Shown here: piece by piece, positions 4,551 through 30,343 of the stretch | How positions within the stretch are numbered: the stretch's first letter is position 1 | How the letters are laid out: each line of letters starts with the position of its first letter | Source: Trichlorobacter lovleyi SZ | GTDB lineage: Bacteria; Desulfobacterota; Desulfuromonadia; Geobacterales; Pseudopelobacteraceae | Length of the DNA: 32,000 nt | Reading direction: 5' to 3' | Assembly (NCBI RefSeq): GCF_000020385.1 | Contig: NC_010814.1 | Span: 960,001-992,000 of the forward strand | Translations under genes and position numbers: made by a program | Notes under the pieces: generated by a model | The model's database searches: none | Seen by the model: only the letters and a program-made list of their open reading frames with translations | Told to the model about the DNA's origin: nothing

Positions 4551-4591
4551 CAAAACAGATTCGACGGCCCCGTTGCCGGAACCGTCGAATC
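4551..4591 (-). terminator. Stem-loop plus U-tract after the NrfD-like gene (possible terminator or attenuator)
   Basis: Perfect 10-bp inverted repeat GATTCGACGG (4558-4567) / CCGTCGAATC (4582-4591). On the minus strand it is followed by TGTTTTG. It lies only ~18 nt upstream of the MCP ATG, so its role is ambiguous. Confidence 0.4.
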
Positions 4592-6165: not shown

Positions 6166-6166
6166 C

Positions 6167-8522: not shown

Positions 8523-8663
8523 GAGCCTCATGCAAGACTACTGCAGAGACCGTCTACTGCGTTGCCCGGTGCTCACTCCTTCGCCTGACTACCTGTTATG
8601 TCTCTGTCGCTCCGCTCCGTGCGCCTTGTATCCGGTCTTCCTCATAACGTTTGCAAGAGGCTC
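8523..8663. repeat. Copy A of a ~140-bp intergenic repeat family with terminal inverted repeats (MITE/REP-like or structured RNA)
   Basis: Termini are GAGCCTCATGCAA ... TTGCAAGAGGCTC. By eye about 75% identical to 30120-30257. Shared blocks: CTACTGCGTT, CTCCTTCGCCT, GTTATGTCTC, CGCCTTGTATCCG, TTCATAAC. More distantly related to 26576-26697. Confidence 0.8.
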
Positions 8664-8672
8664 ATCTGCCTG

Positions 8673-9896: not shown

Positions 9897-10017
9897 AAGT
9901 GTACCCCTTTGCACCTTGTGGTCCCGTATGGGTGATAGTTAGCCTTTTATGCAGATTACGTCTTTTTTCGCGTGGTACCGTGCAGGTAAGCTGTTACTCA
10001 GATGCTGTCTTGTGTTT

Positions 10018-10176
10018 AAGCCTCCAGAAGTTTGCAACCACCGGCTCAACAGAACAGGGCACCTTCATTCTCTGCGTTGGTATTTTATCATGGTGTTGCG
10101 GCTCCTTTCGTGGAGGTGTGCAGTCCTGCAAGGGTGACATCGCGCTAATCCGATTCTTGCTGCAGCGTGCTGAGGC
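10018..10176. repeat. Possible degenerate fourth copy of the intergenic repeat family, inside the OFA-transporter leader
   Basis: Imperfect termini AAGCCTCCAGAAGTTTGCAA ... TGCAGCGTGCTGAGGC. Internal blocks CTCTGCGTTGG, GCTCCTTTCG and TAATCCGATTCTTGC resemble copies A and B. Confidence 0.35.
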
Positions 10177-10265
10177 CGTTTGATGTCCGGTTCCGACAGG
10201 TGACGGCTCTGTAGCGGGAACGGCCAGCCCGGATTTGTCATGCCATCCGCCTTGTCTGCAACTTT

Positions 10266-10281
10266 AGCAACGAGTGTGCCA
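10266..10281 (-). promoter_or_regulatory. Sigma-54 (-24/-12) promoter upstream of the OFA transporter
   Basis: The minus strand reads TGGCACACTCGTTGCT, matching TGGCAC-N5-TTGCW with correct spacing. Intergenic, correct orientation, about 370 nt upstream of ATG 9896. Confidence 0.75.
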
Positions 10282-10421
10282 CTCTTGGTTGTTTGTGCAA
10301 CTGCTGGAAATTAAATGGAAAAATCTGGATTGTGGGTGGTCTTGCTTCCAGCTTTGATAAGCTGAATATCAAATTGGGAACGGTGCGTTTGGGACACTGA
10401 CGCCGGTTGGTGGCCCAGCCC

Positions 10422-10453
10422 AAAAAACAGGGGCCGGTGAGTACCGGCCCCTG
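10422..10453 (-). terminator. Rho-independent terminator of the AAHS transporter gene
   Basis: Stem CAGGGGCCGGT / ACCGGCCCCTG (11 bp, 4-nt loop), followed on the minus strand by TTTTTT. About 60 nt after the stop at 10515. Confidence 0.85.
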
Positions 10454-10514
10454 TGCGTTGGTTTGTCTGTGTGGATGTAGGCTTCAGTTTTTGAATCAAC
10501 CGGCAAAGCGGTTC

Positions 10515-11861
10515 TTACACCTCGCCACGGGCGGTTGAACGCATATGCCGCTGCAGAATGACGACGACGACGGCAATGATCAATGCGCTGCTGCCGTTGA
10601 CGGCGCAGATGTCAAACACGCTCCAGTTGCGGGCCAGATAAAATCCGCCAACGGCCGGTGCGAGGAACGAGCCGATCTTGCCGATGCCGTAGGCCCAGCC
10701 GATGCCGGTGGCCCTGATCTCTGCCGGGTAGACCGCCGATGCCAGCCCCATCAGTGCGGAGTTGCCGCCGTTCACAAAAAGCCCGGCCAGTACGGAAACC
10801 ACGATGACCACGGCAAAGGGGTAGCCTGAAGAGAAGTAGCCGAACGCCAGCATGGCAAAGAAGGCGGCCAGGAAGACGTATTTCACGACATTCAGCTTGT
10901 TGTATTTGTCCATACAGCGGCCGATGCAGAGTATAGCCACAACAGAGCCAAGGTGAATGAAGGCAAAGCCGATGCTGTACTGCTGGACCGACGCACCGCT
11001 CTTCTTGAGCAGGGTGGGTACCCAGGAAAAGAGGATCCAGAGCAGATAGAAGCTCATGTAGAACAGGATCCAGAGCAGTATGGTCGTCAGCAGGCGGTGG
11101 TCGGTAAACAGTGACTTGAGGGAACCGCCTTTTTCCTTGGTCTGGCTGGTGACCGTCAGTTCGATATCTGCGGAGAGCGGTGATGATCTGTCAATCCGTG
11201 CCAGAATTTCACGGGCCTTGGCAATGGATTTGGCTGTTCCGGTCCTGACCAGGTGGTGCAGGGAATCAGGCAACAGCAACAGGATCAGCAGCGCAATCGC
11301 CACCGGCGCGATCCCCCCCACGATGAAGACCGATTGCCAGCCGTAGTGGGGCAGCAGCCAGGAAGCGGCAAATCCTGCGATCATGGCACCGCAGGGCATG
11401 CCGGCCCACATATAGAGGGAAAGTGAGGTGCGGATTCTGGCTGGAGCATATTCACTGCCGAAGGCCAGGGCGTTGGGGATGGCGCCACCCATGCCGAGGC
11501 CGGCCAGAAAACGGTAGGCTGCCAGTTCTTCGACACTGGTGATATGGGTGGTCATGTAGGTGAAAAAACCAAAGACAATGGCTGAGCAGAACATGGTCTT
11601 CTTGCGTCCGACACGGTCAGCCAGCATGCCCAGCAGTACCGCGCCGATCATGGGCCCCAGCTGTCCGGCACTTAATGCCAACCCCAGTTCGCTCGGCTTG
11701 GCGTTCAGATGCTCGGCGATCTTGGGTAGTGCCACTCCGATGACCGTCAGGTCAAAGCCGTCAAGAAAGACGATACAGAAACAGAGTAGGCAAACTGCTG
11801 TTTGGTAAGGTGAAAAAGGAATATTATCGAATACTTCATTAACGTTCACAGACCTGCTCAC
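10515..11861 (-). CDS. MFS transporter, aromatic acid:H+ symporter (AAHS; PcaK/MhpT/BenK-like) family
   Basis: 448-aa 12-TM ORF. The N-terminus ..FSPYQTAVCLLCFCIVFLDGFDLTVIGVALPKIAEHL, followed by GMLADRVGRKK, is typical of AAHS-family transporters. Confidence 0.8.
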   Translation of the reverse strand: MSRSVNVNEVFDNIPFSPYQTAVCLLCFCIVFLDGFDLTVIGVALPKIAEHLNAKPSELGLALSAGQLGPMIGAVLLGMLADRVGRKKTMFCSAIVFGFFTYMTTHITSVEELAAYRFLAGLGMGGAIPNALAFGSEYAPARIRTSLSLYMWAGMPCGAMIAGFAASWLLPHYGWQSVFIVGGIAPVAIALLILLLLPDSLHHLVRTGTAKSIAKAREILARIDRSSPLSADIELTVTSQTKEKGGSLKSLFTDHRLLTTILLWILFYMSFYLLWILFSWVPTLLKKSGASVQQYSIGFAFIHLGSVVAILCIGRCMDKYNKLNVVKYVFLAAFFAMLAFGYFSSGYPFAVVIVVSVLAGLFVNGGNSALMGLASAVYPAEIRATGIGWAYGIGKIGSFLAPAVGGFYLARNWSVFDICAVNGSSALIIAVVVVILQRHMRSTARGEV

Positions 11862-12007
11862 GTGTGACCTCCCTCAAATCGTATTCCGGTTCATTAGCCT
11901 CTTTGCACTGATGAGGCTCAGCTGGAGAAAAGCTGCATGGCAATCTTTCGATACGGTCTTGCAACATCTTGAACGGATTCGCGCGAAAATCGGTTAATGA
12001 GAGGGTC

Positions 12008-12023
12008 AGCAAGAACGGTGCCA
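12008..12023 (-). promoter_or_regulatory. Sigma-54 (-24/-12) promoter upstream of the AAHS transporter
   Basis: The minus strand reads TGGCACCGTTCTTGCT, a full consensus match, about 147 nt upstream of ATG 11861. A perfect palindrome GTTGCAAAAATGCAAC abuts it on the upstream side. Confidence 0.8.
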
Positions 12024-12182
12024 TTGTTGCAAAAATGCAACTTATCGATTTGATGAGTTTTATTCAAGCAATAAAGTGGGGGCGCTGTCAAGAATGAGAA
12101 GAATCTTCTCGAATTGATTTTAATGGAAAGCTGCGGAAATCTGTAAACAGAATTACGGCTGGAATGAAGCGGGAGGCAGGTC

Positions 12183-12845
12183 TTAATGGTGTTCTTGCCA
12201 GTATTGAAACTCAAAGTCCCAGTCATCCTTGCGGGATTCCACCAGCCGCTTCATGCGGGCCTTGAAACTGCCCCGGTAACCGGCCTGATCAGGAAAGTGG
12301 TTCTGCTCCCGGATGCAGCGGCAGAGTTCGCTGCCCAGTTCCCGTGCCTTGTCAAAGAGTTCAGCCTGTTTGGGGAAACTGCGCCTGCCGCTTACCTGGG
12401 AGCTGACTGACCCCACTGACTGGGCACCGGTAGAGTTGATGAAACGGACCATGTAGCGCAGCAGTTCATCGTGCTCTGCGCCACCGGAGGTTACGGCCAC
12501 TGCCCCGTACTTGCCCTCAAGCGCCAGGCAGTGGATCAGGCTGCTGCTGCGGTCAAACAGGGTCTTCAGCTGGGCGGTGACACTGAAGATATAGTTGGGG
12601 CTGGCCAGGACAAAGCCGTCGCAGGTCAGCAGGCTGGTCTTGATCATCTCGTAGTCGTCCGGCAGACGGCAGCTGCCGTTCTTGTGACAGGCATCGCAGC
12701 CGAGGCAGGGCTGCAGGTGCAGCGTTGAGAGGTCAATCAGCTCCAGCTCCGCCGCGGCTCCAAGACCGGCCATGACCTCTTCCACCAGGCGGCCGGTATT
12801 GCCGTGCATGCCATGGGGACTGCCTATGATAACGGTGATCTTCAC
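12183..12845 (-). CDS. Iron-sulfur flavoprotein (Isf-like; flavodoxin-fold FMN reductase family with compact 4-Cys motif)
   Basis: 220-aa ORF with a GTG start and an AAGGAAG RBS. MKITVIIGSPHGMHGNTG is the flavodoxin-like FMN loop. CLGCDACHKNGSC is the CX2CX2CX5C motif characteristic of Isf [4Fe-4S] sites. Confidence 0.75.
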   Translation of the reverse strand: MKITVIIGSPHGMHGNTGRLVEEVMAGLGAAAELELIDLSTLHLQPCLGCDACHKNGSCRLPDDYEMIKTSLLTCDGFVLASPNYIFSVTAQLKTLFDRSSSLIHCLALEGKYGAVAVTSGGAEHDELLRYMVRFINSTGAQSVGSVSSQVSGRRSFPKQAELFDKARELGSELCRCIREQNHFPDQAGYRGSFKARMKRLVESRKDDWDFEFQYWQEHH

Positions 12846-13024
12846 GTCTGTCTTCCTTGGTGTCAGCCTGCCTGTAATCCTATGCCATTCCTGGCGATTG
12901 ATCCGGGCGAAGCAGATTGCGGGGCTTGTGGCCGGTGCAATCTGCCGTGCCGGGATGCGTGCAGCGGGTTGTCTGTTTCCCGCCCCTGAACGTCTTCAGG
13001 AGCGGGAAGCAGGGTCTCTATGGT

Positions 13025-14731
13025 TCAGGGGGTATCCAGTTGATAGAGACGCAGGGCTGCCTTGCGGTCTGCCACAGGGCTGGTTTTGGGGAACGCCACG
13101 ACGCTGAGCAGTCTGGCCTTTTCGCCTGCCTTGCCCGGCATCAGTTTGAAGTCGGCCAGGTAGCTCTTGTCAGGTGCGGTATGCCAGACCTCGCGCAGTT
13201 CCTTGCCGTTCCAGTGCAGTCGCTTGATTTCTGACTTGAGGTACATCTTGAAGCGGGCCAGGAAGCTCAGGCCACTGTTGGCGCTGACCAGGATGTCGCC
13301 CTGATCGGATGCCTCGATCCGTGCCTTGAGATAGACCTCGCGGCTCTCTCCGCCGCTGGGCACGTCGTCGTTCATGGTGAAGTAGGATTCGGTCCCGCCC
13401 AGCGCATCCACGCTGTCGGCCAGTTCTTCTCCCTCAGGGGTGACGATTGAGAGGTAGCCGTCATCATTCAGATAGGCGATCAGCTTGCGCCCCTGACTGG
13501 TGAACGGGGCAAAGCCGTACAGATTGATCCGTCTGGGCAGTGACAGTTTTGCACCGGCAGTCAGGCGGTCTCCTGAGCGCTTGACCCGGAAGACCGGGCC
13601 GGCAAACTCACGTCCCAGGCTGTCATACTCCTGGGCCAGCAGCACGTCCCCTTCGCCGGGCAGTGCAACCCGGCGCAGATGCCAGGGAATCTTGGTGATG
13701 GTTGTCCGGTAGCGCCCGTCGCGGAATTCAATGCTGATACCGGCCGGGTTGCCGTTGCTGTTCATGGCTGATACATACAGTTCAGGGCGTCCGTTGGGAA
13801 GGAGATCAACAGCATCAAGGGCATAGGCCAAGCTGCCTGCGGCAAGCCGGACAGTGCCCAGTCCCTGGTACCCCTCAGGGCCCAGACGTCCGATTTCAAT
13901 CCGGTCGCTGTAGGCAATGGCCACTTCCGGTCGTCCGTCGCCGTCGAAATCGCCCGCCTCAACCCCCACCGGCGTTCCCTTCAGGCCAGTGTAGCTCCAG
14001 ATCGGTTCACCGCCGGCCAGAACAGCGCCACCTGCGGTCACCGGCGGCAGTACCGCAAGTGCAGACGCCGCTGTCGGTGCTGCTGTTGCTGCCGGTGCCG
14101 GCTGACTGGGCTGGGGTGATGTGGTGGTTGGGTAGCTGTGGATCAACTCGAAATCCGGTGCGCGTACTTCAACTGCCTGGCTGGTCAGGATAAAGTAGAG
14201 TGCCGGGCTGAATGTGGCGGGCCGGGCCGGGCTTGCCGGACGTTTCTGCTGGGCAGCGGCATAGTCCTGCCAGTTCAGATGCGGCAGCGCGGTTTGCAGT
14301 TCTTTGGCCAGCTGTTCTCCCTGGCCGGTGTAATCCCACACTATGGCCGGAATGTCCTGAAAACGATGGATCACGTCACCGCGCTTGACCCCTGCAACAG
14401 TCCCGACCGGGCGACTGTGGGAATAGCCTTGCTTCAGACGGATCAGCCGCAGTAGTCCTTTGCGTGTTTCCTCGGTTCCCAGCACCTTCCCGGTGACCGG
14501 GTGCGTAATCGTGGCGCCCGGGCCGACAACGGTGAACAGATCACCGACGGCAACACCCTGGCCGATCCCCAGGTCAATCAGATACTCTTCTCCGCTGGAT
14601 TGCACGACATATCCCGAGAGCGGTGTGAAATCACGAACAACCTGGTCCGGTAGTGACGTTGCGGCGAAACTGCAGGTGGCGGCTGCCAGCAGCAGTAGGA
14701 CTGTGCAGGCCGTTTTCAAAATGGTAAACAT
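13025..14731 (-). CDS. Exported hypothetical protein: N-terminal beta-rich domain, Pro/Ala linker, FG-GAP/VCBS-like repeat region
   Basis: I place the start at ATG 14731 (MFTILKTACTVLLLLAAATCSFAA, a signal peptide) with a GGAGGG RBS. The track's 50-aa N-terminal extension is unlikely. DFDGDGRPEVAIAYSDRIEIG is FG-GAP-like. There is a PAPAATAAPTAAS linker. Confidence 0.7.
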   Translation of the reverse strand: MFTILKTACTVLLLLAAATCSFAATSLPDQVVRDFTPLSGYVVQSSGEEYLIDLGIGQGVAVGDLFTVVGPGATITHPVTGKVLGTEETRKGLLRLIRLKQGYSHSRPVGTVAGVKRGDVIHRFQDIPAIVWDYTGQGEQLAKELQTALPHLNWQDYAAAQQKRPASPARPATFSPALYFILTSQAVEVRAPDFELIHSYPTTTSPQPSQPAPAATAAPTAASALAVLPPVTAGGAVLAGGEPIWSYTGLKGTPVGVEAGDFDGDGRPEVAIAYSDRIEIGRLGPEGYQGLGTVRLAAGSLAYALDAVDLLPNGRPELYVSAMNSNGNPAGISIEFRDGRYRTTITKIPWHLRRVALPGEGDVLLAQEYDSLGREFAGPVFRVKRSGDRLTAGAKLSLPRRINLYGFAPFTSQGRKLIAYLNDDGYLSIVTPEGEELADSVDALGGTESYFTMNDDVPSGGESREVYLKARIEASDQGDILVSANSGLSFLARFKMYLKSEIKRLHWNGKELREVWHTAPDKSYLADFKLMPGKAGEKARLLSVVAFPKTSPVADRKAALRLYQLDTP

Positions 14732-14862
14732 AGGTTCCCTCCTTCGTGTTTGTGCAGTCCCTGCCGGGCAGGTACTGCAGAGGCCACTTCCCCGTGTGGC
14801 TGTTGAGCAGGAGGCCAGCCGTGCCGAAGCAACGCCGGTCTGACCTCCCTGTCTGCTTGCTG

Positions 14863-16023
14863 CTAGAATTTCATTTCCCACTTGACACCGGCAGCATAGA
14901 TCTGGGGCTCACGTGCCCCGGCTGCACTGCGCAGGTCATTCAGGTAGGTGAATTCCGGCACGACATTGAAGTTCTTGGTTACGGCATACTGCAGGTTGGC
15001 AAAGGCGGCCATCCGGTCATCGGTTGCCCGTCCACGCATCTCGTTGGACTCATAGGCCACACCGGTAAACATTTTGATCTTGTTGTTCAGTTTATAGCCG
15101 ATCTGTCCCCAACCGCCATAGGTGTAAGCGTTTTTACCGGTGGCAGAGCTGTTGTTGTAGAAGGAACCGGCCGCTGCAGCAGCGTTGTTCATCAGGTTGC
15201 CGATGTTTTGTCCCGTGTGACCCGCAACTTTGATTTCAATCGGGGCCAGATCGATCATGGCATGCGCAAAGCCCAGGTAGGAGTAAATTTCATCCTTGCC
15301 GGTCTGTACGTTGCCGGCCACGGTCCGTATCTTGTAGTAGTTACCGGCCACGCCGCCGCCGTAGGTCACGATGCCGGCCTTGCCTTCATAACCGGCAATG
15401 GTCTTGGGCATAAAGGTGTCGTAATCGGTATAGCCGGTTGAGTAAACCGTACTGGTCAGGTTGGTCGGGGTGCCTGACCAGCTGTTGCCGGTGTTGGTGG
15501 TAAAGGCGTTGGTGGCACTGATGCCGTTCAGGCCGACCGTTGCCTGCTTCATCAGGGTCAGGTAAAAACCGTTGTTCATGGTCAGCTTGATCTGGGCATA
15601 GCGACCATCCCAGAGAGAGGCATAACCGTTAAAACCGCCGTCGGCATCATAGACCTGCTCAGAACGGTAGACATAGGGGCTGGGGGCATAGCCGACCCGC
15701 AGCTTGCCGTTGCCGAAGTTCCATTCACCGAACAACAGCCGCAACTCTACGCCACCGGCACGGTTTTTGGGGTTGTAGGCACCCATTTCGGCAACACCTG
15801 AAAAATCACCCTCTTTCACCCGCATACCCACTAGGCTGTCCCCTTGCAGGTCCAGGGTGAAGTCAGCATCATGCAGAGGGTTCGTGCCATTGTAGTAGGT
15901 ACTTGAGGTCCACCAAGTTGCCACCCGGATTGCTCCGTAGGGGGTGACATCCAATGCCATGGCAGGTGCTGACAGGCCAAGGGCTGCTGCGATGAGCGAT
16001 GCGCTGATGATACGTTTCTTCAT
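14863..16023 (-). CDS. Outer-membrane beta-barrel porin-like protein
   Basis: Signal peptide MKKRIISASLIAAALGLSAPAMA. Alternating amphipathic, Gly/Tyr/Asn-rich strands. C-terminal ..YAAGVKWEMKF with a terminal Phe typical of OMPs. Strong RBS AAGGAGGAG. Confidence 0.75.
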   Translation of the reverse strand: MKKRIISASLIAAALGLSAPAMALDVTPYGAIRVATWWTSSTYYNGTNPLHDADFTLDLQGDSLVGMRVKEGDFSGVAEMGAYNPKNRAGGVELRLLFGEWNFGNGKLRVGYAPSPYVYRSEQVYDADGGFNGYASLWDGRYAQIKLTMNNGFYLTLMKQATVGLNGISATNAFTTNTGNSWSGTPTNLTSTVYSTGYTDYDTFMPKTIAGYEGKAGIVTYGGGVAGNYYKIRTVAGNVQTGKDEIYSYLGFAHAMIDLAPIEIKVAGHTGQNIGNLMNNAAAAAGSFYNNSSATGKNAYTYGGWGQIGYKLNNKIKMFTGVAYESNEMRGRATDDRMAAFANLQYAVTKNFNVVPEFTYLNDLRSAAGAREPQIYAAGVKWEMKF

Positions 16024-16362
16024 GCTGTGCTCCTCCTTGCTTCAAGTAAGTGATCGCTGCCCTCGAAAGGGCGCGGTAGTATCGCCACGCCAGGCGTGGT
16101 CATGCGGTTACTGACTTACTCCGCAGGCACCGGCTGCGTGCCCGACGGTACTTTTTACAACTCACCTCCTCTCCCCTGAAATGTCGTCATATGAAGAACC
16201 GGCTGCTGCCGGATTGCGTTCCTTCTCTCATTAGTAGCGCCATGTGCGTGAAACGGCTGAGGCCGAGAGAAGGAGGGGGAATCCCTGCGTCTGCACCCTT
16301 CACGCACATGGCACGGGCCGGACTGTCCGGCGATGCTTAGACGCCGGCTTGGAGAGCTGGTT

Positions 16363-16378
16363 TGCAGTCGCCGTGCCA
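16363..16378 (-). promoter_or_regulatory. Sigma-54 (-24/-12) promoter upstream of the porin/FG-GAP unit
   Basis: The minus strand reads TGGCACGGCGACTGCA. Intergenic, correct orientation, about 340 nt upstream of the porin ATG at 16023. Confidence 0.7.
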
Positions 16379-16742
16379 TAGTGGTTATTTGTTGAAATTC
16401 TAGCTAAATCAGTATCTTGCGATGATGGTTGTTTGATTTGATCTTGTCGGTTTGATGTGTGGGGCTTTCATTATGAGAAGGTTTAGTTCTGAATTGAACG
16501 GTCTGTTGCGGGTAGGTCATTCTCATTTCAGGAGGGGGGGACTGCTCTGTTTCGCTACAAAAACATAGCGTCTTCTGAATACAGGGGCGCTGGCCGGTAG
16601 ATCTCAATGCTGCTGCAGCTCATTCAGCTAACAGGGGAAAATCAGCAACCGGGACAGCCCTGAAGAAAAGGGACTGCCCCGGTCAGATTTGAGGCGGGAG
16701 TGATGGCAGGTGGCGCGGGTATAGCGATGACCATTGACGGTC

Positions 16743-16910
16743 TCAGGCCTTTTTGTCCAGTTCAATGGCCTCTTTGCCCTCGCTTGCTTCTTTGAAATTA
16801 CGGATTCCTTTACCGACGGCCCGACCAACTTCAGGCAGTTTTCCTGCGCCGAAGATCACCAGCACGATTGACATGATGACGATAAGCTCCGGCATTCCAA
16901 AACCGAACAT
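16743..16910 (-). CDS. tatA: Twin-arginine translocase subunit TatA/E (55 aa)
   Basis: Below the ORF-track size cutoff. Own translation: [55 protein letters not shown]. This is the canonical TatA pattern of a TM helix, FG hinge and amphipathic helix. A GGAGGAG RBS lies 8 nt upstream. Confidence 0.9.
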
Positions 16911-16963
16911 AATTTATTCTCCTCCAGGGTGATTTGTTGTAACCATTCCGACATTAAGCGGCC

Positions 16964-17482
16964 TTAGGGCAGTTTGAAATTGAAGGTGTGGCACTGCACG
17001 CAAAAGTTTTCACCCTTGGCATGCTGGTGGTGGCAGACGTTGCAGTCCAGCGCCGTTCCGTAATGGGGTGAGGTATGCGGGTTTTGAGGTTTTACCCCGG
17101 CGGTTTTCTCTGCCAGTCTGGCCGGCTCATGGCACGCTTCACAGACAGCGGCTTCAACCGGGGTCTGTTTCTTGGCCTTACCGTGGCATTTGACACAGGT
17201 GACACCGGCCAACTGGTGTCTGTGGCTGAGTGGCAGCTTTCCTGATAGACTTGTCGGTGAATCTTTGGTGTGGCACTCCCGGCAGGCGCTGAGCGCCATT
17301 TTGGCGGTTTTGACGTGTCCATCCGGCAGCACCTTGTCCTTGCCGTGGCAGGCGCTGCAGTTGTCCGGTTTGGCGGAGGTCAGGCGCTTGGGGGCTGCAA
17401 ACGCAGGCAGGGCAACAAGCAGGGTGAGCGCTGCTGCCGTGCACAGCGCGGCAGATCTGGCTGGAATGAAGGTCGTGTACAT
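16964..17482 (-). CDS. Periplasmic hexahaem c-type cytochrome (C-terminal half homologous to the flavocytochrome c3 cytochrome domain)
   Basis: Signal peptide ..LTLLVALPAFAA. Six CXXCH motifs: CSACH, CRECH, CVKCH, CEACH, CNVCH, CVQCH. The tail NPHTSPHYG..CNVCHHQH..CVQCHTFNF parallels the 22845-23213 product. Confidence 0.9.
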   Translation of the reverse strand: MYTTFIPARSAALCTAAALTLLVALPAFAAPKRLTSAKPDNCSACHGKDKVLPDGHVKTAKMALSACRECHTKDSPTSLSGKLPLSHRHQLAGVTCVKCHGKAKKQTPVEAAVCEACHEPARLAEKTAGVKPQNPHTSPHYGTALDCNVCHHQHAKGENFCVQCHTFNFKLP

Positions 17483-17567
17483 GGTTGAAGCACTCCTGAA
17501 AAATGGAATTTTAAGCTCTTACAACGTCTTCAGTCGTTACTGAAACTGATCAGGAACCATGGAAATA

Positions 17568-17668
17568 GCACGCGGATGACACGGATCAGGCGGATATACA
17601 CGGATTTTAAACCGTCTGTTTTCTGAAAATCAGCGTAAATCCGCCAAAATCAGATTTGATCCGCGTGC
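17568..17668. repeat. ~100-nt imperfect palindrome with CGGAT/ATCCG iterations in the flavoprotein-cytochrome intercistronic gap
   Basis: Outer arms GCACGCGGAT (17568-17577) / ATCCGCGTGC (17659-17668). Internal GCGGATGACACGGATCAGGCGGATATACACGGAT contains four CGGAT units, answered by AAATCCGCC and GATCCGCG. Confidence 0.6.
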
Positions 17669-17703
17669 TAATGTCTTTAACTTTACCTGGGTCCGACAGG
17701 CTC

Positions 17704-19257
17704 CTAGCCCCAGTTCTTTTCTTTGGCTGCGTTCTTTCCGGCGATCCTGCCGAAGACAACACAATCGAGCATGGCACAGGTACCGAGGCGCACGGCACCA
17801 TGTACCCCGCCGGTCACTTCGCCGGCAGCGTACAGCCCTTTGATCGGCTTGAGGTTGAAGCCTTTGACCTGGGCATTTTTGTCAATCACCAGACCGCCCA
17901 TGCAATGATGTACCCGCGGCCAGAGCCGGCAGGCATAAAACGGGGCTACGACCGTCGGGGTGGTCTCCGGGAAGATCTTGCAGTTGAAGTCAGGATCCTT
18001 TCTCTTTTCTACATAGGAGTTCCATTTGGCGATTTCTTCCTTGAGCGCAGCCAGGGGAATGCCGTAGTTGGCAGCCAGTTCTTCGATGGTATCAAACCTT
18101 TTGATTGCACCGTTGGCCATCCCTTTTTCCAGGGTGTGTGACAGTACCTGCCGTTTGACGTTTACTGCATCGCCGAAGATGATGGTCGGGTAGCCCAGTG
18201 CCATCATGGCATCGGCCCGTACCTTGCGGTTACCGGTTTCCTGAATGAAGCGCCTGCCGGTTTTGGGGTCAATCATCGGCCCGTAGCCCACCAGACGTTC
18301 ACAAAACTGCGGGACATGTCCGAAGCCCTTTTCATCGGGACTGGTCCAAGGGCCCATCTGGATCCAGTCCATCTGTACATCCATGGCACCTGCCCGGCAG
18401 GCGGCCAGGGTGGCCTCGCCGGTGGCGCCCGGATGGTTGGTGGAGTCAAAGCGGCTGTCAATCCGGGGGTCCTGGATCTGGCGCAGTTCAACGTTCTGGG
18501 AGAAGCCGCCTGATGCCAGTACCACCGCCTTGCGGGCCTTTACGAAGCTTGCCTTGCCGGACCTGTCATCAGGAAATTTGTAGCCCTTTCTGATCTCCAG
18601 GCCGACAACCCGCCCCTCTTTGTTGGTGATCAGGCGTTCCATCTTGGTGGTAAACTGGAATTTGACCCCCATGGATTTGGCCTTGGCAAACAGCGGATTG
18701 ACCAGGCCTGAACCGGATGCATTATCGGTCTGGACCGACCGCTTGACCGAGTGGCCACCATGAAAGACCAGCTTGACAAACCTGGCCCCCACAAAGTTCT
18801 GACACCAGTCAAGCGCTTCACCGGACTGCTCGGCAATGGTACGGGCCAGTTCAGGGTGGTTCAGGTTTGAACCGGCCTTCAGCAGGTCTTTCATGAACAG
18901 CTCAGGCGAATCCTGAATACCGGCCTCTTTCTGCCACTTGGTGCCTGCAACCGCCATCTCTCCGCCGTTGATGATTGAGTTGCCGCCATGGGTACGCATT
19001 TTCTCAATCACCAGTACCTCGGCACCGGCATGCCTGGCCTCAATGGCTGCTGACAAACCGGCAAAGCCGGTCCCGACAACGATAACGTCATAGGTCTCAT
19101 CCCACTTCTTCGGCATCTCGCCACAGGCCGCCTCTGCCTGCCGGACTGTGGCGGCCAGTCCGGTCATGGCCAGACCGGCCGCTGCTGCAACTGCCCCGGT
19201 GGTTTTCAGGAAGCTTCTGCGGGTTACTTCGGATTCCTGGCTGATTTCGTCACTCAT
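17704..19257 (-). CDS. Tat-exported FAD flavoprotein of the fumarate reductase/flavocytochrome-c (FAD_binding_2) family, haem domain absent
   Basis: I place the start at ATG 19257 (MSDEISQESEVTRRSFLKTTGAVAAAAGLAMTGLAATVRQAEA, a twin-arginine signal) with a GGGAGG RBS. DVIVVGTGFAGLSAA is the FAD dinucleotide fold. RVHHCMGGLVID parallels the HHTMGG motif of Shewanella Fcc3. Confidence 0.88.
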   Translation of the reverse strand: MSDEISQESEVTRRSFLKTTGAVAAAAGLAMTGLAATVRQAEAACGEMPKKWDETYDVIVVGTGFAGLSAAIEARHAGAEVLVIEKMRTHGGNSIINGGEMAVAGTKWQKEAGIQDSPELFMKDLLKAGSNLNHPELARTIAEQSGEALDWCQNFVGARFVKLVFHGGHSVKRSVQTDNASGSGLVNPLFAKAKSMGVKFQFTTKMERLITNKEGRVVGLEIRKGYKFPDDRSGKASFVKARKAVVLASGGFSQNVELRQIQDPRIDSRFDSTNHPGATGEATLAACRAGAMDVQMDWIQMGPWTSPDEKGFGHVPQFCERLVGYGPMIDPKTGRRFIQETGNRKVRADAMMALGYPTIIFGDAVNVKRQVLSHTLEKGMANGAIKRFDTIEELAANYGIPLAALKEEIAKWNSYVEKRKDPDFNCKIFPETTPTVVAPFYACRLWPRVHHCMGGLVIDKNAQVKGFNLKPIKGLYAAGEVTGGVHGAVRLGTCAMLDCVVFGRIAGKNAAKEKNWG

Positions 19258-19375
19258 ACGACATACCTCCCTCGTGAAGTTGGCCCTGGCGGGCTGCATC
19301 TGACAAAACTGACTCTGCTGCAGGCGGTTGCCCGGCACACCGGTCCGGCATCCGGGTCATGCTGTAACGTCTGAT

Positions 19376-19391
19376 AGCAGTTCCTGTGCCA
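19376..19391 (-). promoter_or_regulatory. Sigma-54 (-24/-12) promoter of the flavoprotein / 6-haem cytochrome / tatA operon
   Basis: The minus strand reads TGGCACAGGAACTGCT, about 119 nt upstream of ATG 19257. It lies in the divergent region shared with the sigma-54 activator gene. Confidence 0.75.
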
Positions 19392-19502
19392 GTGGTGTGC
19401 ACACTGTAACATACTGAAAATGCTGGATGTCTGTTTTTGGTGCTTGACGCAACACTTTAATTTTGCGAAACGGATTTTAAAATTTGAAGTGTAGGGGCAG
19501 CC

Positions 19503-21140
19503 ATGAAGACCTCACAACTTGATTTCAGGGAACTGCTGTCGTTTAACCCCCAGGGGGGGGTGATCCGTTTTCTCGGCCAACGGGCCTACCTGGTCGATGC
19601 AACTGCCCAGGGGCTGCAGCGCAAAGAGTTTATTGATGCCTTCGGGCCGGAGATGGTGCGCACCATTGTCACCCGCTCGGCCTATGCCCACGGCTGGCGG
19701 GTTGCCGAGACCGTCAAGACCGAGTTGCCGGAGGTCTGGGCCGAGGCAAAGGAAGGCAAGCTGGGACCGATGCTGTGCGCCCTGTACGGCTTCGGGGAGA
19801 TTGTCAGCAGCCGGCGCACCGATGGCCTGGGGGATGAACCACTGGTTGAAACCGTGTTGAAGGATTCGTTTGAGGCTGAGCAGCATCTGATGCTGTCGGG
19901 GGGATCTGATGAAGCGGTCTGCTGGCGCTACACCGCCTTTGCCAGCGGCTATGTATCGCGGGTGCAGGGCCGTGAGGTGTACTTCATTGAGGACAGCTGC
20001 CGCGCCAAAGGTGATGACTACTGCCGGATCAAAGGCAGGTACCTTGAACAGTGGGGGGACGAGATCAAGCCGTACCTGCCCTATTATCAGACCAAGAATG
20101 TGGAGTCCATTTGTGCTGAACTGCGCAGGAAGCTGCAGGCAACGGAAAAACGCCTCAAGCATTACCAGCGCGATATGGCCTTTCTGCATAATGAGTGCGA
20201 AGAAGGTAACTGCTATCCTGTTTCCCGCAGCAGTGTCATGCAGAAGGTGCTTGATTTTGCCTGGCTGCTGGCAGAGGTGGATTCTTCAGTCCTGATCACC
20301 GGTGAGAGCGGTGTCGGTAAGGAGCGGATGGCACTTCAGATCCATTCCCGGTCGCCGCGCTCCAACAAGCCGTTTCTGGCGGTCAACTGTGGCGCCCTGA
20401 GCGAAACGCTGCTTGACAGTGAACTGTTCGGCCATGCCAAGGGGGCCTTTACCGGAGCAGACCGGGATCGCATCGGGCTCTTTGAGGCTGCAGCCGGAGG
20501 GACCCTGTTTCTTGATGAGGTGGGGGAGGTCTCTCCGTCCATGCAGGTCAAGTTGCTGCGGGCGCTGCAGGAAAGGGAAATCCGCCGTGTAGGCGAGAGT
20601 CAGCCGCGAAAGATCGATGTACGGATTATCTCTGCCACCAACCGCAATCTGCAGGAGGCCGTGGCATCCGGCGGCTTCCGGCAGGATCTGTTTTATCGCC
20701 TGAAGGTGATCGAACTGCATATCCCGCCACTGCGTGAACGGACCGAAGATATTCTGCCCCTTGCCCGCTGCATTCTGAATGCCCTGACAAAGGTTATGGG
20801 CAAAAATGTGACCGGCTTTAGCCACCAGGCGGCTGATAACCTGTTGTGCTACGAGTGGCCGGGCAATATCCGTGAGCTGCAGAACGCCATTGAATATGCA
20901 CTGGTCCTCTGTCGCAGCAATCAGATCGATGCCGAAGATCTGCCTGCCGAGGTTCGCAATTCACTCTTCAGGCCGACGGCTGTGAGCGGCATCAGATCCC
21001 TTGAGGCGATCGAGCGGGATTATATCCTTTCCGTACTGGCGGTTCAGGGGAACAATAAGGCCCGTACCGCAGAAAAACTTGAGATCAGTCTGGCGACCCT
21101 GTACAGGAAGTTGCGGGAATACGGTATGATGGATCGCTGA
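19503..21140 (+). CDS. Sigma-54-dependent transcriptional activator, XylR/DmpR type (XylR_N + V4R sensor, AAA+ core, Fis-type HTH)
   Basis: 545 aa. The N-terminus ..GVIRFLGQRAYLVDATAQGLQRKEFID.. and the ..AKGDDYCRIKG (V4R-like) segment resemble the XylR/DmpR A-domain. Walker A is GESGVGKE. The GAFTGA motif occurs as GHAKGAFTGA. C-terminal HTH: ARTAEKLEISLATLYRKLREYG. Confidence 0.9.
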   Translation: MKTSQLDFRELLSFNPQGGVIRFLGQRAYLVDATAQGLQRKEFIDAFGPEMVRTIVTRSAYAHGWRVAETVKTELPEVWAEAKEGKLGPMLCALYGFGEIVSSRRTDGLGDEPLVETVLKDSFEAEQHLMLSGGSDEAVCWRYTAFASGYVSRVQGREVYFIEDSCRAKGDDYCRIKGRYLEQWGDEIKPYLPYYQTKNVESICAELRRKLQATEKRLKHYQRDMAFLHNECEEGNCYPVSRSSVMQKVLDFAWLLAEVDSSVLITGESGVGKERMALQIHSRSPRSNKPFLAVNCGALSETLLDSELFGHAKGAFTGADRDRIGLFEAAAGGTLFLDEVGEVSPSMQVKLLRALQEREIRRVGESQPRKIDVRIISATNRNLQEAVASGGFRQDLFYRLKVIELHIPPLRERTEDILPLARCILNALTKVMGKNVTGFSHQAADNLLCYEWPGNIRELQNAIEYALVLCRSNQIDAEDLPAEVRNSLFRPTAVSGIRSLEAIERDYILSVLAVQGNNKARTAEKLEISLATLYRKLREYGMMDR

Positions 21141-21168
21141 ACCAGGATCGGGAGAAGCGGCGGAGATA

Positions 21169-21211
21169 CAGCAAAGCCCCTGCGGAGTGCGACTCCACAG
21201 GGGCTTTGCTG
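21169..21211. terminator. Bidirectional rho-independent terminator between the convergent activator and flavoprotein-2 genes
   Basis: Perfect 14-bp stem CAGCAAAGCCCCTG / CAGGGGCTTTGCTG with a 15-nt loop and T-containing flanks on both strands. Confidence 0.8.
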
Positions 21212-21236
21212 TTCAGGCCTGTTTGAAACCGGTTTT

Positions 21237-22772
21237 TTACTGCTTGATATATTTGACCGCATGCTCCGCTGCAAAACGGCCGGAGTTGATGGCGTAGCCG
21301 GCGGTGCCGCCGCCCAGCAACAGGTCGTAGGAGTCGCCATACATACCACCGGAGTCGGTACCAACGGCGTAGAGGCCGGGGATCGGGTCACCGCTTGTCT
21401 TGACCACCTGGTTGTTGGCCGTTACTTTCATGCCGCCCAGAGTACCCAGGTGACGGGGGGTCAGCTTGGTGGCATAGAAGGGACCGGTGGCCACTTTACG
21501 CAAGAATTTTGGATCTTTGCCAAACTCGGCATCTTTACGGGTATCGGCTGCTGTGTTCATCCTGGCAACACTGGCCTGCAGCACTTCAGGCTTCATGTTC
21601 AGCTGCTTGGCCAGCTCTTCGATGGTGTCGGCCTTGAAAACGTTGCCACGCTTGCGGGCCAGTTCTTTGTTAAAGGCATCTTCCCACTTGACCAGTTTGG
21701 TGCCTGCCAGAACCCACTCGCCCAGAGGCATTTCAATCCCCTGTTCAACGGCCATCTTGCGGGTTGCATCATCATAGATGGCGTAGGCAACACCACCGAC
21801 ACGGACCAGGGAGTTATTGGAGTAAGGCCAGAAGACGATGTTGGACTCGTCGGTATAGCGCTCACCACGGGGGGTGACCCAGAAATAGGGTTGTACTGCC
21901 AGGGCGATCATCTGGTCGGCCGGGTGGAAGCCGGGCAGACCGGGCCGGTAGCCCTGTACTGTGTTCATGCCCTCAAGATCGGCACCTGCCTTGATGCCCA
22001 TCGTGATGCCGTCGCCATCCTTACCGATGTTACCCACCGGGGTGATGTCGGGATACTCGGGATAGTACTTCTTCATCATCTCCTTGTTGCTGGAGAAACC
22101 GCCGGTAGCAATAACAACCGCCTTGGCATTGATGCGGATCTTCTCGCCGGACTTGTCCTTGGCCCAGACACCAACGACCTTGCCGTTGTCCATGATCAGG
22201 TCAGTACCGGGGGTTTGCAGCAGGATCTGTCCACCTTTGTCGGTAACATACTTGCTGAACACATTGATGATCCGCTCGCAGTGGTAGTCCTTCTTGTTTT
22301 TGCCGGAGAGATAGTCCGGACCCGGAGCAATTACATGCCAGGTCAGGGGGCCGCCATGGCCGCCGACACCGATATATTCAATCTTGATCCCCATTGAGTC
22401 CAGCCAGTCAACGGTTTCAGCCGAGCGATCCACAAAATGTTTTGCCAGCGCGGAATTGGCCTTCCAGTGGCTGTATTCCATGATCAGCTTGTAGGCAAAA
22501 TCCTTGGTGACATTGATGCCGATCCTTTTTTGCAGCTTGCTCTCTGCAGCAAAGACACCCTCACAGAACAGCCCGGTGCCGCCTACCTTGGCCTGCTTCT
22601 CAAGCACTACCACCTTGGCTCCCAGTTGGGTTGCCTGGGTAGCTGCCGACAGCCCCGAAAGGCCGCCGCCGACAACTGCAATGTCCGTTTCCATAGTCTT
22701 TTCGGCATAGGCCGGTAGCGCACATGCCACCAACAATGCTGCCGAAGCGATACTGCTCCACAGTCTCTTCAT
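21237..22772 (-). CDS. Sec-signal-bearing periplasmic FAD-dependent oxidoreductase (FAD_binding_2 family, KstD/flavocytochrome-like, divergent from 17704-19257)
   Basis: Signal MKRLWSSIASAALLVACALPAYA has no RR motif. DIAVVGGGLSGLSAA is the FAD fold. RHLGTLGGMKV occupies the position where paralog 1 has HHCMGG. Confidence 0.85.
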   Translation of the reverse strand: MKRLWSSIASAALLVACALPAYAEKTMETDIAVVGGGLSGLSAATQATQLGAKVVVLEKQAKVGGTGLFCEGVFAAESKLQKRIGINVTKDFAYKLIMEYSHWKANSALAKHFVDRSAETVDWLDSMGIKIEYIGVGGHGGPLTWHVIAPGPDYLSGKNKKDYHCERIINVFSKYVTDKGGQILLQTPGTDLIMDNGKVVGVWAKDKSGEKIRINAKAVVIATGGFSSNKEMMKKYYPEYPDITPVGNIGKDGDGITMGIKAGADLEGMNTVQGYRPGLPGFHPADQMIALAVQPYFWVTPRGERYTDESNIVFWPYSNNSLVRVGGVAYAIYDDATRKMAVEQGIEMPLGEWVLAGTKLVKWEDAFNKELARKRGNVFKADTIEELAKQLNMKPEVLQASVARMNTAADTRKDAEFGKDPKFLRKVATGPFYATKLTPRHLGTLGGMKVTANNQVVKTSGDPIPGLYAVGTDSGGMYGDSYDLLLGGGTAGYAINSGRFAAEHAVKYIKQ

Positions 22773-22844
22773 ATCTTCCTCCTGTGTTGGGTGTAGGTCC
22801 CTGAACGGCCGTGGCCAGGGACGTGAAAACTGTCTGCAAACCAG

Positions 22845-23213
22845 CTATTTAGGTACAAAATCAAAGGTGTGGCACTGTCCGCAGACCAGTTCTGACGGCT
22901 TGTGGGTGCGGTGGCAATCGGTACAGTTGATCGGCCCCATATGGGATTCGTGTGGATTGGCATGGGCCTCTTTGTCTGCCGGGTTGGCGATATGCTTCGG
23001 TTTTGTTTTTGCGGCCAGTTGTTCGTAACTGCCGTGGCAGGATAGGCATGCCTCGTTGGTTGGACCTGCCTGTGGCGCATCGGTCTTGTGGCAATCAGCA
23101 CACTTGAAGCCCATGGTGGCATGGGGGCCGCCAACAGTGAGTGCGTTGGCGCCGGCTACCGTGACGGTGAGCAGGGTCAAAATAAAGAACAGCTTGAATG
23201 GGATTCTGAACAT
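22845..23213 (-). CDS. Periplasmic tetrahaem c-type cytochrome (flavocytochrome c3 cytochrome-domain homolog as a stand-alone protein)
   Basis: Signal peptide plus four CXXCH motifs: CADCH, CLSCH, CTDCH, CGQCH. NPHESHMGPINCTDCH..CGQCHTFDF matches the Fcc3-type haem domain pattern. Confidence 0.9.
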   Translation of the reverse strand: MFRIPFKLFFILTLLTVTVAGANALTVGGPHATMGFKCADCHKTDAPQAGPTNEACLSCHGSYEQLAAKTKPKHIANPADKEAHANPHESHMGPINCTDCHRTHKPSELVCGQCHTFDFVPK

Positions 23214-23319
23214 GAGAGTTTACCTCCTGGGATTTTATATTTTGATGGTGCGATCACCTGCGTGCCCCCGGATACACGTAAGGAGCGGTGTAGGGATAAT
23301 GCACCTGTAGAAAACATTC

Positions 23320-23335
23320 TGCAGATGGTGTGCCA
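23320..23335 (-). promoter_or_regulatory. Sigma-54 (-24/-12) promoter of the 4-haem cytochrome / flavoprotein-2 operon
   Basis: The minus strand reads TGGCACACCATCTGCA, about 107 nt upstream of ATG 23213. Confidence 0.75.
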
Positions 23336-23546
23336 TAAATATAACTTGCCGATATTACGTTAGTAGTATGTTTACAGGGTTGACTTGGGCTATCGAAATG
23401 ATAGGGTTATTACTGAATTGGAAGGGATCGGCTCCCGGCAAAGGGTGTACTGAAACTGCACCGGCTTTCCGGTCTTCCGGCAGGGGAGGACGCAACCCTC
23501 GTCATGGTTGAAAACGGCCTTGATCGTACAAGGATGGTGTTAGCAG

Positions 23547-30320: not shown

Positions 30321-30343
30321 AAATTGATCAATGGGATTTATGA

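Follow-up and report, generated by a model that had tools for sequence, protein, structure and literature searches.

A candidate XylR-type sigma-54 regulon over anaerobic respiratory modules in Trichlorobacter lovleyi SZ, with a recurring upstream enhancer and a possible mosaic history

The XylR, DmpR and MopR regulons of aromatic catabolism in Pseudomonas and Acinetobacter are the closest described relatives of the regulatory system considered here: a cluster of five sigma-54 promoters and one activator gene in a 32 kb stretch of the genome of Trichlorobacter lovleyi SZ (the window), with promoters numbered P1 to P5 from low to high coordinates. T. lovleyi respires organohalides and metals and is of environmental importance. 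The window activator shares the full domain architecture and the zinc-site spacing of the XylR/DmpR/MopR proteins, and in both cases the activator gene is divergent from a sigma-54 promoter with a palindromic enhancer upstream and there are several promoters per activator. It differs in being only ~36-39% identical to the characterized members and in its targets, which here would be anaerobic respiratory reductases, a porin and transporters, whereas there they are oxygenase pathways. A second parallel comes from the resorcinol island of the anaerobe Aromatoleum anaerobium, for which PMC10084136 describes three sigma-54 promoters under the paralogous XylR-kind activators RedR1 and RedR2. That system, as described there, is catabolic and has both activators present and interacting, whereas in the window one paralogue has apparently been lost.

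The first-pass annotation of this DNA had not recognized its gene combination as a described pathway. The enzymes, however, are of a known kind, the split periplasmic flavocytochrome c reductases (PMC4427408; bioRxiv 10.1101/2024.02.11.579808), and resemble the methacrylate, acrylate and urocanate reductases; both modules of the window pair an exported flavoprotein with a separate exported multiheme cytochrome c (6 or 4 hemes). Mrd/Mcc of Geobacter sulfurreducens AM-1 (PMC4427408) likewise combines, in one operon, a FAD flavoprotein exported by the twin-arginine translocation (Tat) pathway with a Sec-exported multiheme cytochrome c. Table 1 of that paper lists an Mrd homologue of G. lovleyi SZ with 517 aa, the Tat motif RRSFLK and 39% identity, and flavoprotein 1 of the window has this same length (517 aa) and motif. 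The Mrd system differs in that identity is only ~39% and mrd is predicted to have a -35/-10 promoter rather than a sigma-54 one, and the paper describes no regulon with activator, porin or transporter. Flavocytochrome c 2-enoate reductases of the periplasm also include ArdAB of Shewanella woodyi (bioRxiv 10.1101/2024.02.11.579808), UrdA and FccA, which anoxia and the presence of their substrate induce (acrylate in the case of ard); a "transcriptional regulator" gene adjoins ardA (same preprint), and a Shewanella locus among our comparison contigs (L092) has the same module, activator family and enhancer as the window. Unlike in FccA, the heme domain is here a separate protein, and His365 and Arg381 of Fcc3 are missing. 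The reductase arsenals of gut bacteria (bioRxiv 10.1101/2022.12.26.521950) also cluster flavin or molybdenum (Mo) reductases with regulators and are induced by the electron acceptor, and they include clades with replaced catalytic arginines and a conserved Tyr, as in flavoprotein 2. Their regulators are of two-component, cytosolic helix-turn-helix (HTH) or transmembrane type, and no sigma-54/XylR-type control is described for them. Within incomplete literature coverage, we found no work that ties flavocytochrome reductase modules, or G. lovleyi itself, to sigma-54/XylR-type activators. Together, our comparisons partly support a XylR-type sigma-54 regulon over anaerobic respiratory modules, with a newly defined enhancer and a mosaic history.

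The pattern TGGCACNNNNNYTGCW occurs exactly five times in the window, always on the minus strand, where 0.20 matches are expected (standard deviation 0.40, maximum 1; 100 dinucleotide-preserving shuffles of the window). The five sites, with the distance from the end of the -12 element to the start codon, are as follows.

10266..10281, minus strand: P1, TGGCACACTCGTTGCT; upstream of MFS1 and probably also of the Mo-enzyme operon; 352 nt
12008..12023, minus strand: P2, TGGCACCGTTCTTGCT; upstream of MFS2; 147 nt
16363..16378, minus strand: P3, TGGCACGGCGACTGCA; upstream of a putative porin, an FG-GAP protein and probably an FMN reductase; 340 nt
19376..19391, minus strand: P4, TGGCACAGGAACTGCT; divergent from the activator gene and upstream of flavoprotein 1, cytochrome 1 and tatA; 119 nt
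23320..23335, minus strand: P5, TGGCACACCATCTGCA; upstream of cytochrome 2 and flavoprotein 2; 107 nt

All five TGGCAC-N5-YTGCW matches of the first-pass annotation were thus recovered at their coordinates and on the minus strand only, and its view that they are not due to chance is borne out, more than one match being seen in 0 of the 100 shuffles; its description of the sites as near-identical does not hold beyond the consensus positions. When the window was ranked with an approximate sigma-54 weight matrix, whose frequencies follow a published compilation, P1-P5 were the five best sites (15.0-17.0 bits), followed by two sites of TGGCAG type (14.4 and 13.9 bits), both within open reading frames (ORFs). 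As proposed earlier, each of the five promoters is intergenic and points to the start codon that follows on the minus strand, at distances measured here as 107-352 nt; P2 overlaps solely a mechanical 102-aa ORF without a Pfam match, and the P4 distance is counted to the ATG at 19257, which precedes the Tat motif RRSFLK. P1-P5 agree with the Geobacter sigma-54 consensus TTGGCACGGTTTTTGCT (PMC2725144). In G. sulfurreducens, where RpoN is essential and the same consensus holds, 110 promoters are predicted in the genome (PMC2725144), so that five in 13 kb make a dense cluster.

The promoters are also conserved, as exact or near-exact 16-mers inside diverged non-coding DNA of related contigs (identified by L numbers). 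The 16-mers of P1 and P2 are identical in both L098 and L114; in L125, P1 reads TGGCACAGTCGTTGCT and the MFS2 orthologue is again preceded by a sigma-54 promoter. The P3 16-mer recurs unchanged before the porin/FG-GAP genes of L095, L096 and L098, P3 is conserved in L114 too, and the 16-mer of P5 recurs in L095 and L096, with sigma-54 promoters at the same place in L093 and L094. At the P4 position, L083, L084, L086, L087, L089, L090 and L092 have a sigma-54 promoter with a variant 16-mer. By all these measures the five motifs behave as genuine sigma-54 promoters.

A single sigma-54 activator is encoded in the window, as the first reading had noted; no other was found among the window's large ORFs.

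19503..21140, plus strand: type-1 enhancer-binding protein with XylR_N, V4R, AAA+ (with GAFTGA) and Fis-type HTH domains

Its four domains (PF06505, PF02830, PF00158 and PF02954) all score above the Pfam cut-off; here and below, protein families were called from Pfam and NCBIfam profile matches against curated cut-offs. With the equivalog model of MobR (NF041906) it reaches 339 bits against a cut-off of 999, the model being aligned over residues 7-538, and a score below the cut-off with a shared architecture places it in a separate subfamily. A scan of contigs with the activator returned distant activators, 36-53% identical, among the matches listed. The protein itself belongs to a cluster at 99% identity to which NCBI gives the name Trichlorobacter lovleyi. 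We designate as type 1 the window activator and its kin, including orthologues 74-77% identical in L083-L086, and as type 2 a group of activators that are 52-56% identical to it and flank flavoprotein-2 orthologues in L093-L096. The GAFTGA loop is invariant in the activator alignment (A4), and so is the recognition helix ATLYRKL across both types. The sensor is homologous to the crystal structures of MopR, PoxR and DmpR. Its zinc motif C140-E163-C166-C174 is invariant in 12 homologues and aligns with that of MopR, which we take to be Cys-X22-Glu-X2-Cys-X7-Cys. A further departure from the XylR/DmpR/MopR regulons lies in the phenol anchors of MopR, presumably His106 and Trp134: these columns hold Cys and Leu in the window activator (residues ~91 and ~119) and Cys/Ser and Leu/Val/Ile in type-1 activators, whereas the type-2 activators of L093-L095 keep His and Trp.

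The comparison loci were contigs encoding relatives of the activator, 77, 74 and 74% identical to it (two metagenome contigs and Geomonas silvestris), with further loci at 68, 64 and 63% (metagenomes) and 56% (Shewanella sp., L092). Relatives in this range (56-77%) always lie beside genes for a periplasmic flavoprotein, a multiheme cytochrome and a porin-like protein, often with TatA and FG-GAP genes, and at each such locus a sigma-54 promoter faces the flavoprotein gene. Alignment of the divergent gaps (A1) revealed a conserved block upstream of the promoter with the core TGAGAA-N5-TTCTCA and A/T-rich arms. Its 5-N7-5 dyad geometry is that of sites bound by NtrC-type Fis-HTH dimers. From six foreign loci only, we built a matrix for the 12-nt half-site of this type-1 enhancer and scanned for inverted pairs with spacers of 3-9 nt. 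The window's four best pairs lie upstream of P4, P3, P2 and P1, and 30 shuffles of the whole window gave a maximum of 17.8. They are listed below with the distance from the pair centre to the T of TGGCAC and with the number of 1000 shuffles of the 200-nt upstream region that matched the score.

10342..10381 (core 10349-10377), minus strand: P1 enhancer, CCAATTTGATAT-TCAGC-TTATCAAAGCTG; centre 81.5 nt upstream; score 18.5; 0/1000
12089..12117, minus strand: P2 enhancer, TCAATTCGAGAA-GATTC-TTCTCATTCTTG, with a perfect GAGAA-N5-TTCTC core; centre 79.5 nt upstream; score 23.1; 1/1000
16465..16498 (pair 16468-16498), minus strand: P3 enhancer, TTCAATTCAGAA-CTAAACC-TTCTCATAATGAAAG; score 23.2; 0/1000
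19443..19490 (pair core 19458-19486), minus strand: P4 enhancer, ACTTCAAATTTTAAAATCCGTTTCGCAAAATTAAAGTGTTGCGTCAAG; centre 80.5 nt upstream; score 27.6, the window's best; 0/1000

In 1.35 Mb of unrelated loci, 20 sites reached at least 18.5 and 2 reached at least 23. In the Shewanella locus L092, which had been left out of the matrix, the top match lies upstream of the flavoprotein gene. Across 22 promoters whose geometry was measured, the pair centre falls 78.5-82.5 nt upstream in 14: P1, P2 and P4; all seven activator-adjacent promoters elsewhere; two that precede Mo-enzyme genes in L100; and those of the MFS1 and MFS2 orthologues in L125. The L100 Mo enzyme is 87% identical to that of the window, and the L125 transporters are 89% (MFS1) and 81% (MFS2) identical. 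No activator gene was found in the flanks of these L100 and L125 loci, which reach at most 8 kb, so the enhancer marks targets regulated in trans. Where sites occupy the canonical 80-nt position, the third base of the half-site can be C, A or T. In the literature searched, we found no earlier description of the TGAGAA-N5-TTCTCA enhancer or of its rigid 80-bp offset.

Between the window and L125 (alignment A7), 34 of 38 bases of the P1 enhancer and the promoter are kept, and the intervening and flanking DNA is essentially randomized; both enhancer arms are identical and the distance is unchanged, with 3 of the 5 spacer bases different. Before MFS2 of L125, the enhancer reads TCAAATTGAGAA-ATTCT-TTCTCATAACAG at 82.5 nt. 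A pairwise MAFFT alignment of the P2 regions (A8) mis-registered the enhancer and is not used as evidence. At P3, the palindrome TTCTCA...TGAAAG (16465-16479, TTCTCATAATGAAAG) is strong and lies ~94 nt upstream; its half-site TTCTCA corresponds to TTATCA in L095 (A3). The P4 enhancer is 13-60 nt upstream of the activator's own start codon. Two further palindromes occur near P2: TCATCAAATCGATAA at 12042-12056 on the minus strand, between enhancer and promoter, with a type-2 score of 16.2, and TTGCATTTTTGCAA at ~12026-12039 on the minus strand, which abuts the -24 element.

P5 carries a different element.

23390..23421 (palindrome 23390-23404), minus strand: P5 enhancer, type 2, CCAATTCAGTAATAACC-CTATCATTTCGATAG; centre 61.5 nt upstream

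A type-2 matrix built from five foreign type-2 sites, with the window excluded, gives 20.8 at 23390-23404, the top match of the window (shuffle maximum 15.7). The element aligns with sites beside the type-2 activators of L093, L094 and L095 (A2), whose consensus is TATCA-N3-TGATA. In these relatives, a cytochrome gene precedes the flavoprotein-2 orthologue (73-90% identical), a type-2 activator gene is transcribed divergently from the pair, and porin-like, FG-GAP and MFS genes follow. The closest type-2 contig, L095, has three sigma-54 promoters, two of them with 16-mers identical to those of P5 and P3. A bipartite site seen by eye as common to P3 and P5 was statistically weak (6/200 shuffles) and is explained by shared type-2 ancestry. 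The closest relatives of the window's products are divided between the two types.

Porin: closest in L095 (type 2), 74%; type 1, 62-63%
FG-GAP protein: closest in L095 (type 2), 67%; type 1, 47-50%
Flavoprotein 1: closest in L083 (type 1), 75%
Cytochrome 1: closest in L083 (type 1), 68%
TatA: closest in L083 (type 1), 58%
Activator: closest in L083 (type 1), 77%

No type-2 activator is present among the window genes; a GluQ-like tRNA-synthetase gene occupies its place. The best 120 relatives listed for activator 2 of L095, all at least 61% identical to it, include no NCBI-sourced protein and none from a T. lovleyi genome at NCBI, which argues, within the reach of that list, that T. lovleyi lacks one. 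The simplest reading of this arrangement is a mosaic island in which a type-2 module would have been interrupted by a type-1 module and would have lost its own activator. The ancestral layout would have been activator 2 divergent from cytochrome 2-flavoprotein 2, followed by porin-FG-GAP and further genes; the insert would have brought activator 1 divergent from flavoprotein 1-cytochrome 1-TatA, leaving P5 with its type-2 enhancer.

We consider it moderately probable that the locus is an island of five sigma-54 promoters in which P1-P4 form one regulon of the window activator and P5, with a type-2 enhancer, is a relic of this mosaic history. Sigma-54 RNA polymerase would wait in a closed complex at every TGGCAC-N5-YTGCW element, and activator dimers would bind the 17-bp dyad TGAGA-N7-TCTCA with its A/T-rich arms, ~80 bp upstream of -24. 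A small molecule, probably an electron-acceptor substrate or a close analogue, would act as effector at the zinc-containing XylR_N/V4R sensor, and the AAA+ ring (GAFTGA) would spend ATP to open the promoter. On this account the P4 and P2 enhancers are canonical, P1 has canonical spacing with TATCA-type half-sites, and P3 has strong half-sites at altered spacing. The regulon would supply a Tat-exported flavoprotein reductase of 2-enoate type with its hexaheme cytochrome plus an additional TatA copy; the putative outer-membrane channel together with FG-GAP protein and FMN reductase; an aromatic-acid/H+ symporter (AAHS)-type transporter; and a monocarboxylate transporter with a cytoplasm-facing Mo-oxidoreductase. 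That P1-P4 form one regulon is the most likely arrangement, and their control by the window activator is likely; P5 could be activated either through cross-recognition by activator 1, whose recognition helix is identical, or by a factor encoded elsewhere. The earlier proposal of one activator and one regulon is supported for P1-P4, which are linked by the orthologue-defined enhancer, and less so for P5, which carries the type-2 enhancer instead.

Several observations weigh against this account. P5 has no type-1 enhancer: its pair score of 2.4 was reached by 539/1000 local shuffles. The best P3 pair has a 7-nt spacer and is centred 104.5 nt upstream, not 80; one core half-site of P4 is degenerate, with TTAAAA for TGAGAA; and the P1 half-sites, TGATA/TATCA, resemble the type-2 half-site. 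Direct comparison of the five upstream regions, by k-mers with mismatches and by Smith-Waterman alignment (best z = 2.9), gave nothing significant, and the regulon link rests for that reason on the orthologue-derived matrix. The integration host factor (IHF) consensus WATCAA-N4-TTR was not found between enhancer and promoter anywhere in the window. Relatives carry at least 2-3 paralogous XylR_N-type activators per genome, others of which could serve these enhancers, and the absence of activator 2 from T. lovleyi is judged from the best 120 relatives only.

That the window activator drives all five promoters, having taken over the orphaned type-2 ones, is possible but doubtful. Such a takeover would fit the lack of a second activator in the window and of one from this species among those 120 relatives, the identity of the HTH recognition helix across types, and half-sites that are one base apart (TTCTCA and TTATCA), with that of P3 shifted towards TTCTCA relative to L095. 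It is harder to reconcile with the type-1 score of P5 and with a P5 palindrome whose distance to the promoter is 8 nt shorter than that of its counterparts in L093 and L094. In addition, the MopR His and Trp are kept in type 2 and not in the window activator, so the effectors probably differ, and flavoprotein 2 comes from a different enzyme clade.

A division into two or more regulons, with the window activator serving only P4 and P2, whose enhancers are of TCTCA/TCGCA type, and an outside XylR_N-type activator serving P5 and possibly P1 and P3, which are type 2 in half-sites or in ancestry, strikes us as unlikely. The paralogous activators of the relatives speak for it, as do the type-2 consensus at P5 (20.8), aligned with sites beside type-2 activators, the orthology of P3 and P5 to promoters of the L095 type-2 module, the TGATA/TATCA half-sites of P1, and the action in trans indicated by the L100 and L125 enhancers, which have no activator in their flanks of up to 8 kb. 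The same search of the best 120 relatives, however, returned no T. lovleyi type-2 activator, the recognition helix is the same in both types, and the variable third half-site base (C/A/T) means that half-site type may not discriminate between activators. The layout at P1 (spacer 5, 81.5 nt) is precisely that of type 1, and the strong P3 half-site is TTCTCA where L095 has TTATCA.

It is improbable that another DNA-binding protein, for instance a repressor or a global anaerobic regulator, uses the palindromes as its operators, with the activator's sites elsewhere or unshared. An autorepressor site would also be expected where the P4 palindrome overlaps the activator's own promoter region, and a site at 30300-30330 scores 15-17 with both matrices; this UAS (upstream activating sequence)-like site, which we rejected, lies in the AT-rich divergent LysR/YeiH gap without a sigma-54 promoter, and its near-palindrome is probably a LysR box or a chance match. 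The type-1 sites, however, co-occur only with sigma-54 promoters at a fixed offset of 78.5-82.5 nt in Geobacterales and Shewanella, follow the activator gene across genomes, have the dyad geometry of NtrC-type Fis-HTH dimers and do not fit the FNR/CRP box TTGAT-N4-ATCAA. That the five promoter matches are chance or non-functional look-alikes, as a pattern with only nine fixed bases might allow, is close to refuted by the shuffles, by the intergenic and correctly oriented placement of all five, and by 16-mers kept at orthologous positions amid diverged non-coding DNA.

Flavoprotein 1 is most similar to the structures of UrdA and FccA (E about 1e-82 and 1e-81). It keeps Arg402, His504 and Arg545 of Fcc3 and has Gly, Cys and Val at the positions of His365, Thr377 and Arg381; with His365 and Arg381 missing, it is not a fumarate reductase, and the residue pattern fits a 2-enoate monocarboxylate reductase instead. 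The best NCBIfam match of flavoprotein 2 is vinyl phenol reductase VprA (347 bits, cut-off 600), and it scores 227 bits on TIGR01813, below the cut-off of 285; it lacks the catalytic and binding arginines of Fcc3 type and has Tyr instead. Neither flavoprotein contains a CXXCH motif, the heme proteins being encoded by separate genes. The type-2 sensor pocket, taken with a VprA-like flavoprotein 2, gives a hint that effectors and substrates are phenolic in type 2 and non-phenolic in type 1.

A wider proposal, which we offer as tentative, is that this XylR_N/V4R subfamily makes up a widespread and hitherto undescribed class of electron-acceptor sensors, with one paralogue per reductase module, and that the survivor in T. 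lovleyi captures orphaned promoters. Each paralogue would switch on its own flavocytochrome module through TGAGA-N7-TCTCA placed 80 bp from -24, and capture would proceed through single-base turnover of half-sites, such as TTATCA to TTCTCA at P3. The subfamily was found in Geobacterales, Shewanella and metagenomic Desulfuromonadales, with homologues in Anaeromyxobacter and Nitrospiraceae; at L091, the only Anaeromyxobacter locus looked at, neither a flavoprotein module nor an enhancer match was seen. If the proposal is right, the locus would be a natural example of regulon rewiring following activator loss, and the sensor pocket, with His/Trp or without, would predict the class of acceptor, phenolic versus non-phenolic enoates. 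What began as a motif count is now a testable model with an activator, a 17-bp enhancer of fixed geometry, four or five operons and possibly an orphaned promoter. A search for enhancer plus promoter across the genomes of Geobacter, Shewanella and relatives can list all such modules, and the sensor domain offers a route to reductase substrates, the same problem as that posed by the gut-bacterial arsenals.

The gene units and terminators of the window are as follows; MFS denotes major facilitator superfamily.

4558..4591, minus strand: intrinsic terminator 3' of the NrfD gene, with a stem of 15 pairs and then a T run; the P1 unit likely ends here
4658-5602, minus strand: NrfD-type membrane anchor (Pfam and NCBIfam)
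5599-6192, minus strand: 4Fe-4S subunit (Pfam and NCBIfam)
6167-8404, minus strand: molybdopterin oxidoreductase (Pfam and NCBIfam); N-terminus MSKNIDITQ..., without a twin-arginine motif
8673..9914, minus strand: MFS1, SfMCT-type MFS transporter for monocarboxylates (L-lactate type); 430.8 bits with NCBIfam NF049980 (cut-off 320); Pfam MFS_1
10427..10454, minus strand: intrinsic terminator 3' of MFS2, a 12-pair stem (9 GC) followed by TTTTTTG; parts P2 from the P1 unit
10515..11861, minus strand: MFS2, AAHS-like MFS transporter; TIGR00895, 345.8 bits, below the cut-off of 418
12183..12845, minus strand: FMN_red/flavodoxin-like reductase; Pfam PF03358
13025..14731, minus strand: exported FG-GAP repeat protein, 568 aa from MFTILK...; Pfam FG-GAP_3; conserved partner of the porin gene
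14863..16023, minus strand: putative outer-membrane beta-barrel ("porin"), 386 aa; signal peptide; C-terminus ...KWEMKF
16743..16910, minus strand: TatA/E, extra copy; Pfam TatA_B_E, E = 1e-19
16964..17482, minus strand: cytochrome 1, Sec-exported multiheme cytochrome c; Pfam Cytochrom_c3_2; six CXXCH
17704..19257, minus strand: flavoprotein 1, Tat-exported (RRSFLK) FAD_binding_2 reductase of the flavocytochrome c subfamily; TIGR01813, 478.7 bits against 285
21237..22772, minus strand: flavoprotein 2, Sec-exported FAD_binding_2 reductase of a different clade; signal peptide
22845..23213, minus strand: cytochrome 2, Sec-exported tetraheme cytochrome c; Pfam; four CXXCH

The labels given to these genes at first reading were roughly right, with two corrections: the transporter called OFA is of SfMCT type, above cut-off, and "porin" has no family match. 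For MFS2, the next-best NCBIfam matches are PcaK and MhpT. A TatA gene also trails the module in L083, L087 and L090. The porin has no Pfam or NCBIfam match, and its label is our inference from the signal peptide, the C-terminal Phe and the context. Orthologues of it fill the same slot in L083, L084, L086, L094 and L095, and DcaP-family porins do so in L087, L089 and L092. Assignment of the window porin to the DcaP family was rejected for want of sequence similarity to the DcaP-like proteins of L087 and of a Pfam match.

The Mo-enzyme operon had been put forward as a possible member of the regulon, and its relatives agree with this. The 268-nt gap at 8405-8672 contains no sigma-54 site, enhancer or terminator of its own, and the operon is probably co-transcribed with MFS1 from P1. 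In L100 and L103 the orthologous genes come with a sigma-54 promoter of their own, and the L100 enhancer lies at 80.5-81.5 nt. The same promoter and enhancer architecture accompanies both MFS genes of the relatives, which backs the placement of the Mo operon and the MFS genes in the regulon. The molybdopterin oxidoreductase (6167-8404) lacks a Tat signal, yet its partner is an NrfD membrane anchor. The Mo-enzyme gene travels, in many metagenome contigs (L100, L103, L107, L108, L111 and L121), with a TrsS-like radical S-adenosylmethionine (SAM) gene and a second Mo paralogue.

The long leader of P3 contains a conserved hairpin.

16240..16311, minus strand: RNA hairpin with a 17-bp stem, CCAUGUGCGUGAA.../...UUCACGCACAUGG, and the invariant loop CCUCCUUCUCU

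It has a minimum free energy of -57.9 kcal/mol (z = -2.86) and recurs in L095 (4597-4697), L093 (9795-9890), L114 (75-175) and L098 (103-203); in the distant L093, a run of four stem pairs differs on both strands of the stem. The loop CCUCCUUCUCU is anti-Shine-Dalgarno-like, and the complementary stretch GAGAGAAGG follows at 16221-16229. The hairpin is a candidate cis-regulatory leader of the porin/FG-GAP operon. No Rfam family was found in the window, the long P1 and P3 leaders included. The P1 leader (9915-10265) is 352 nt long in the window and in L114, ~379 nt in L098 and ~125 nt in the L125 orthologue, an excess of roughly 230 nt over L125.

The porin and FG-GAP proteins are 84% and 82% identical to their counterparts in L114 and 69% and 67% identical in L098, a far greater divergence than that of their neighbors in these otherwise near-identical contigs, where the MFS genes reach 96-100% and the FMN reductase 98% (L114) and 87% (L098). 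This suggests diversifying selection or recombination acting on surface-exposed proteins. Finally, the GluQ-like tRNA-synthetase paralogue (23547-24488, plus strand) is joined by a rhodanese/AAA_SelU-type gene, likely a tRNA 2-selenouridine synthase (24443-25459, minus strand), and these two genes, together with the window's TrsS-like radical SAM "(seleno)protein" gene (1039-2349, minus strand; 394 bits against a cut-off of 490), give the surroundings a selenium/tRNA-modification flavor.

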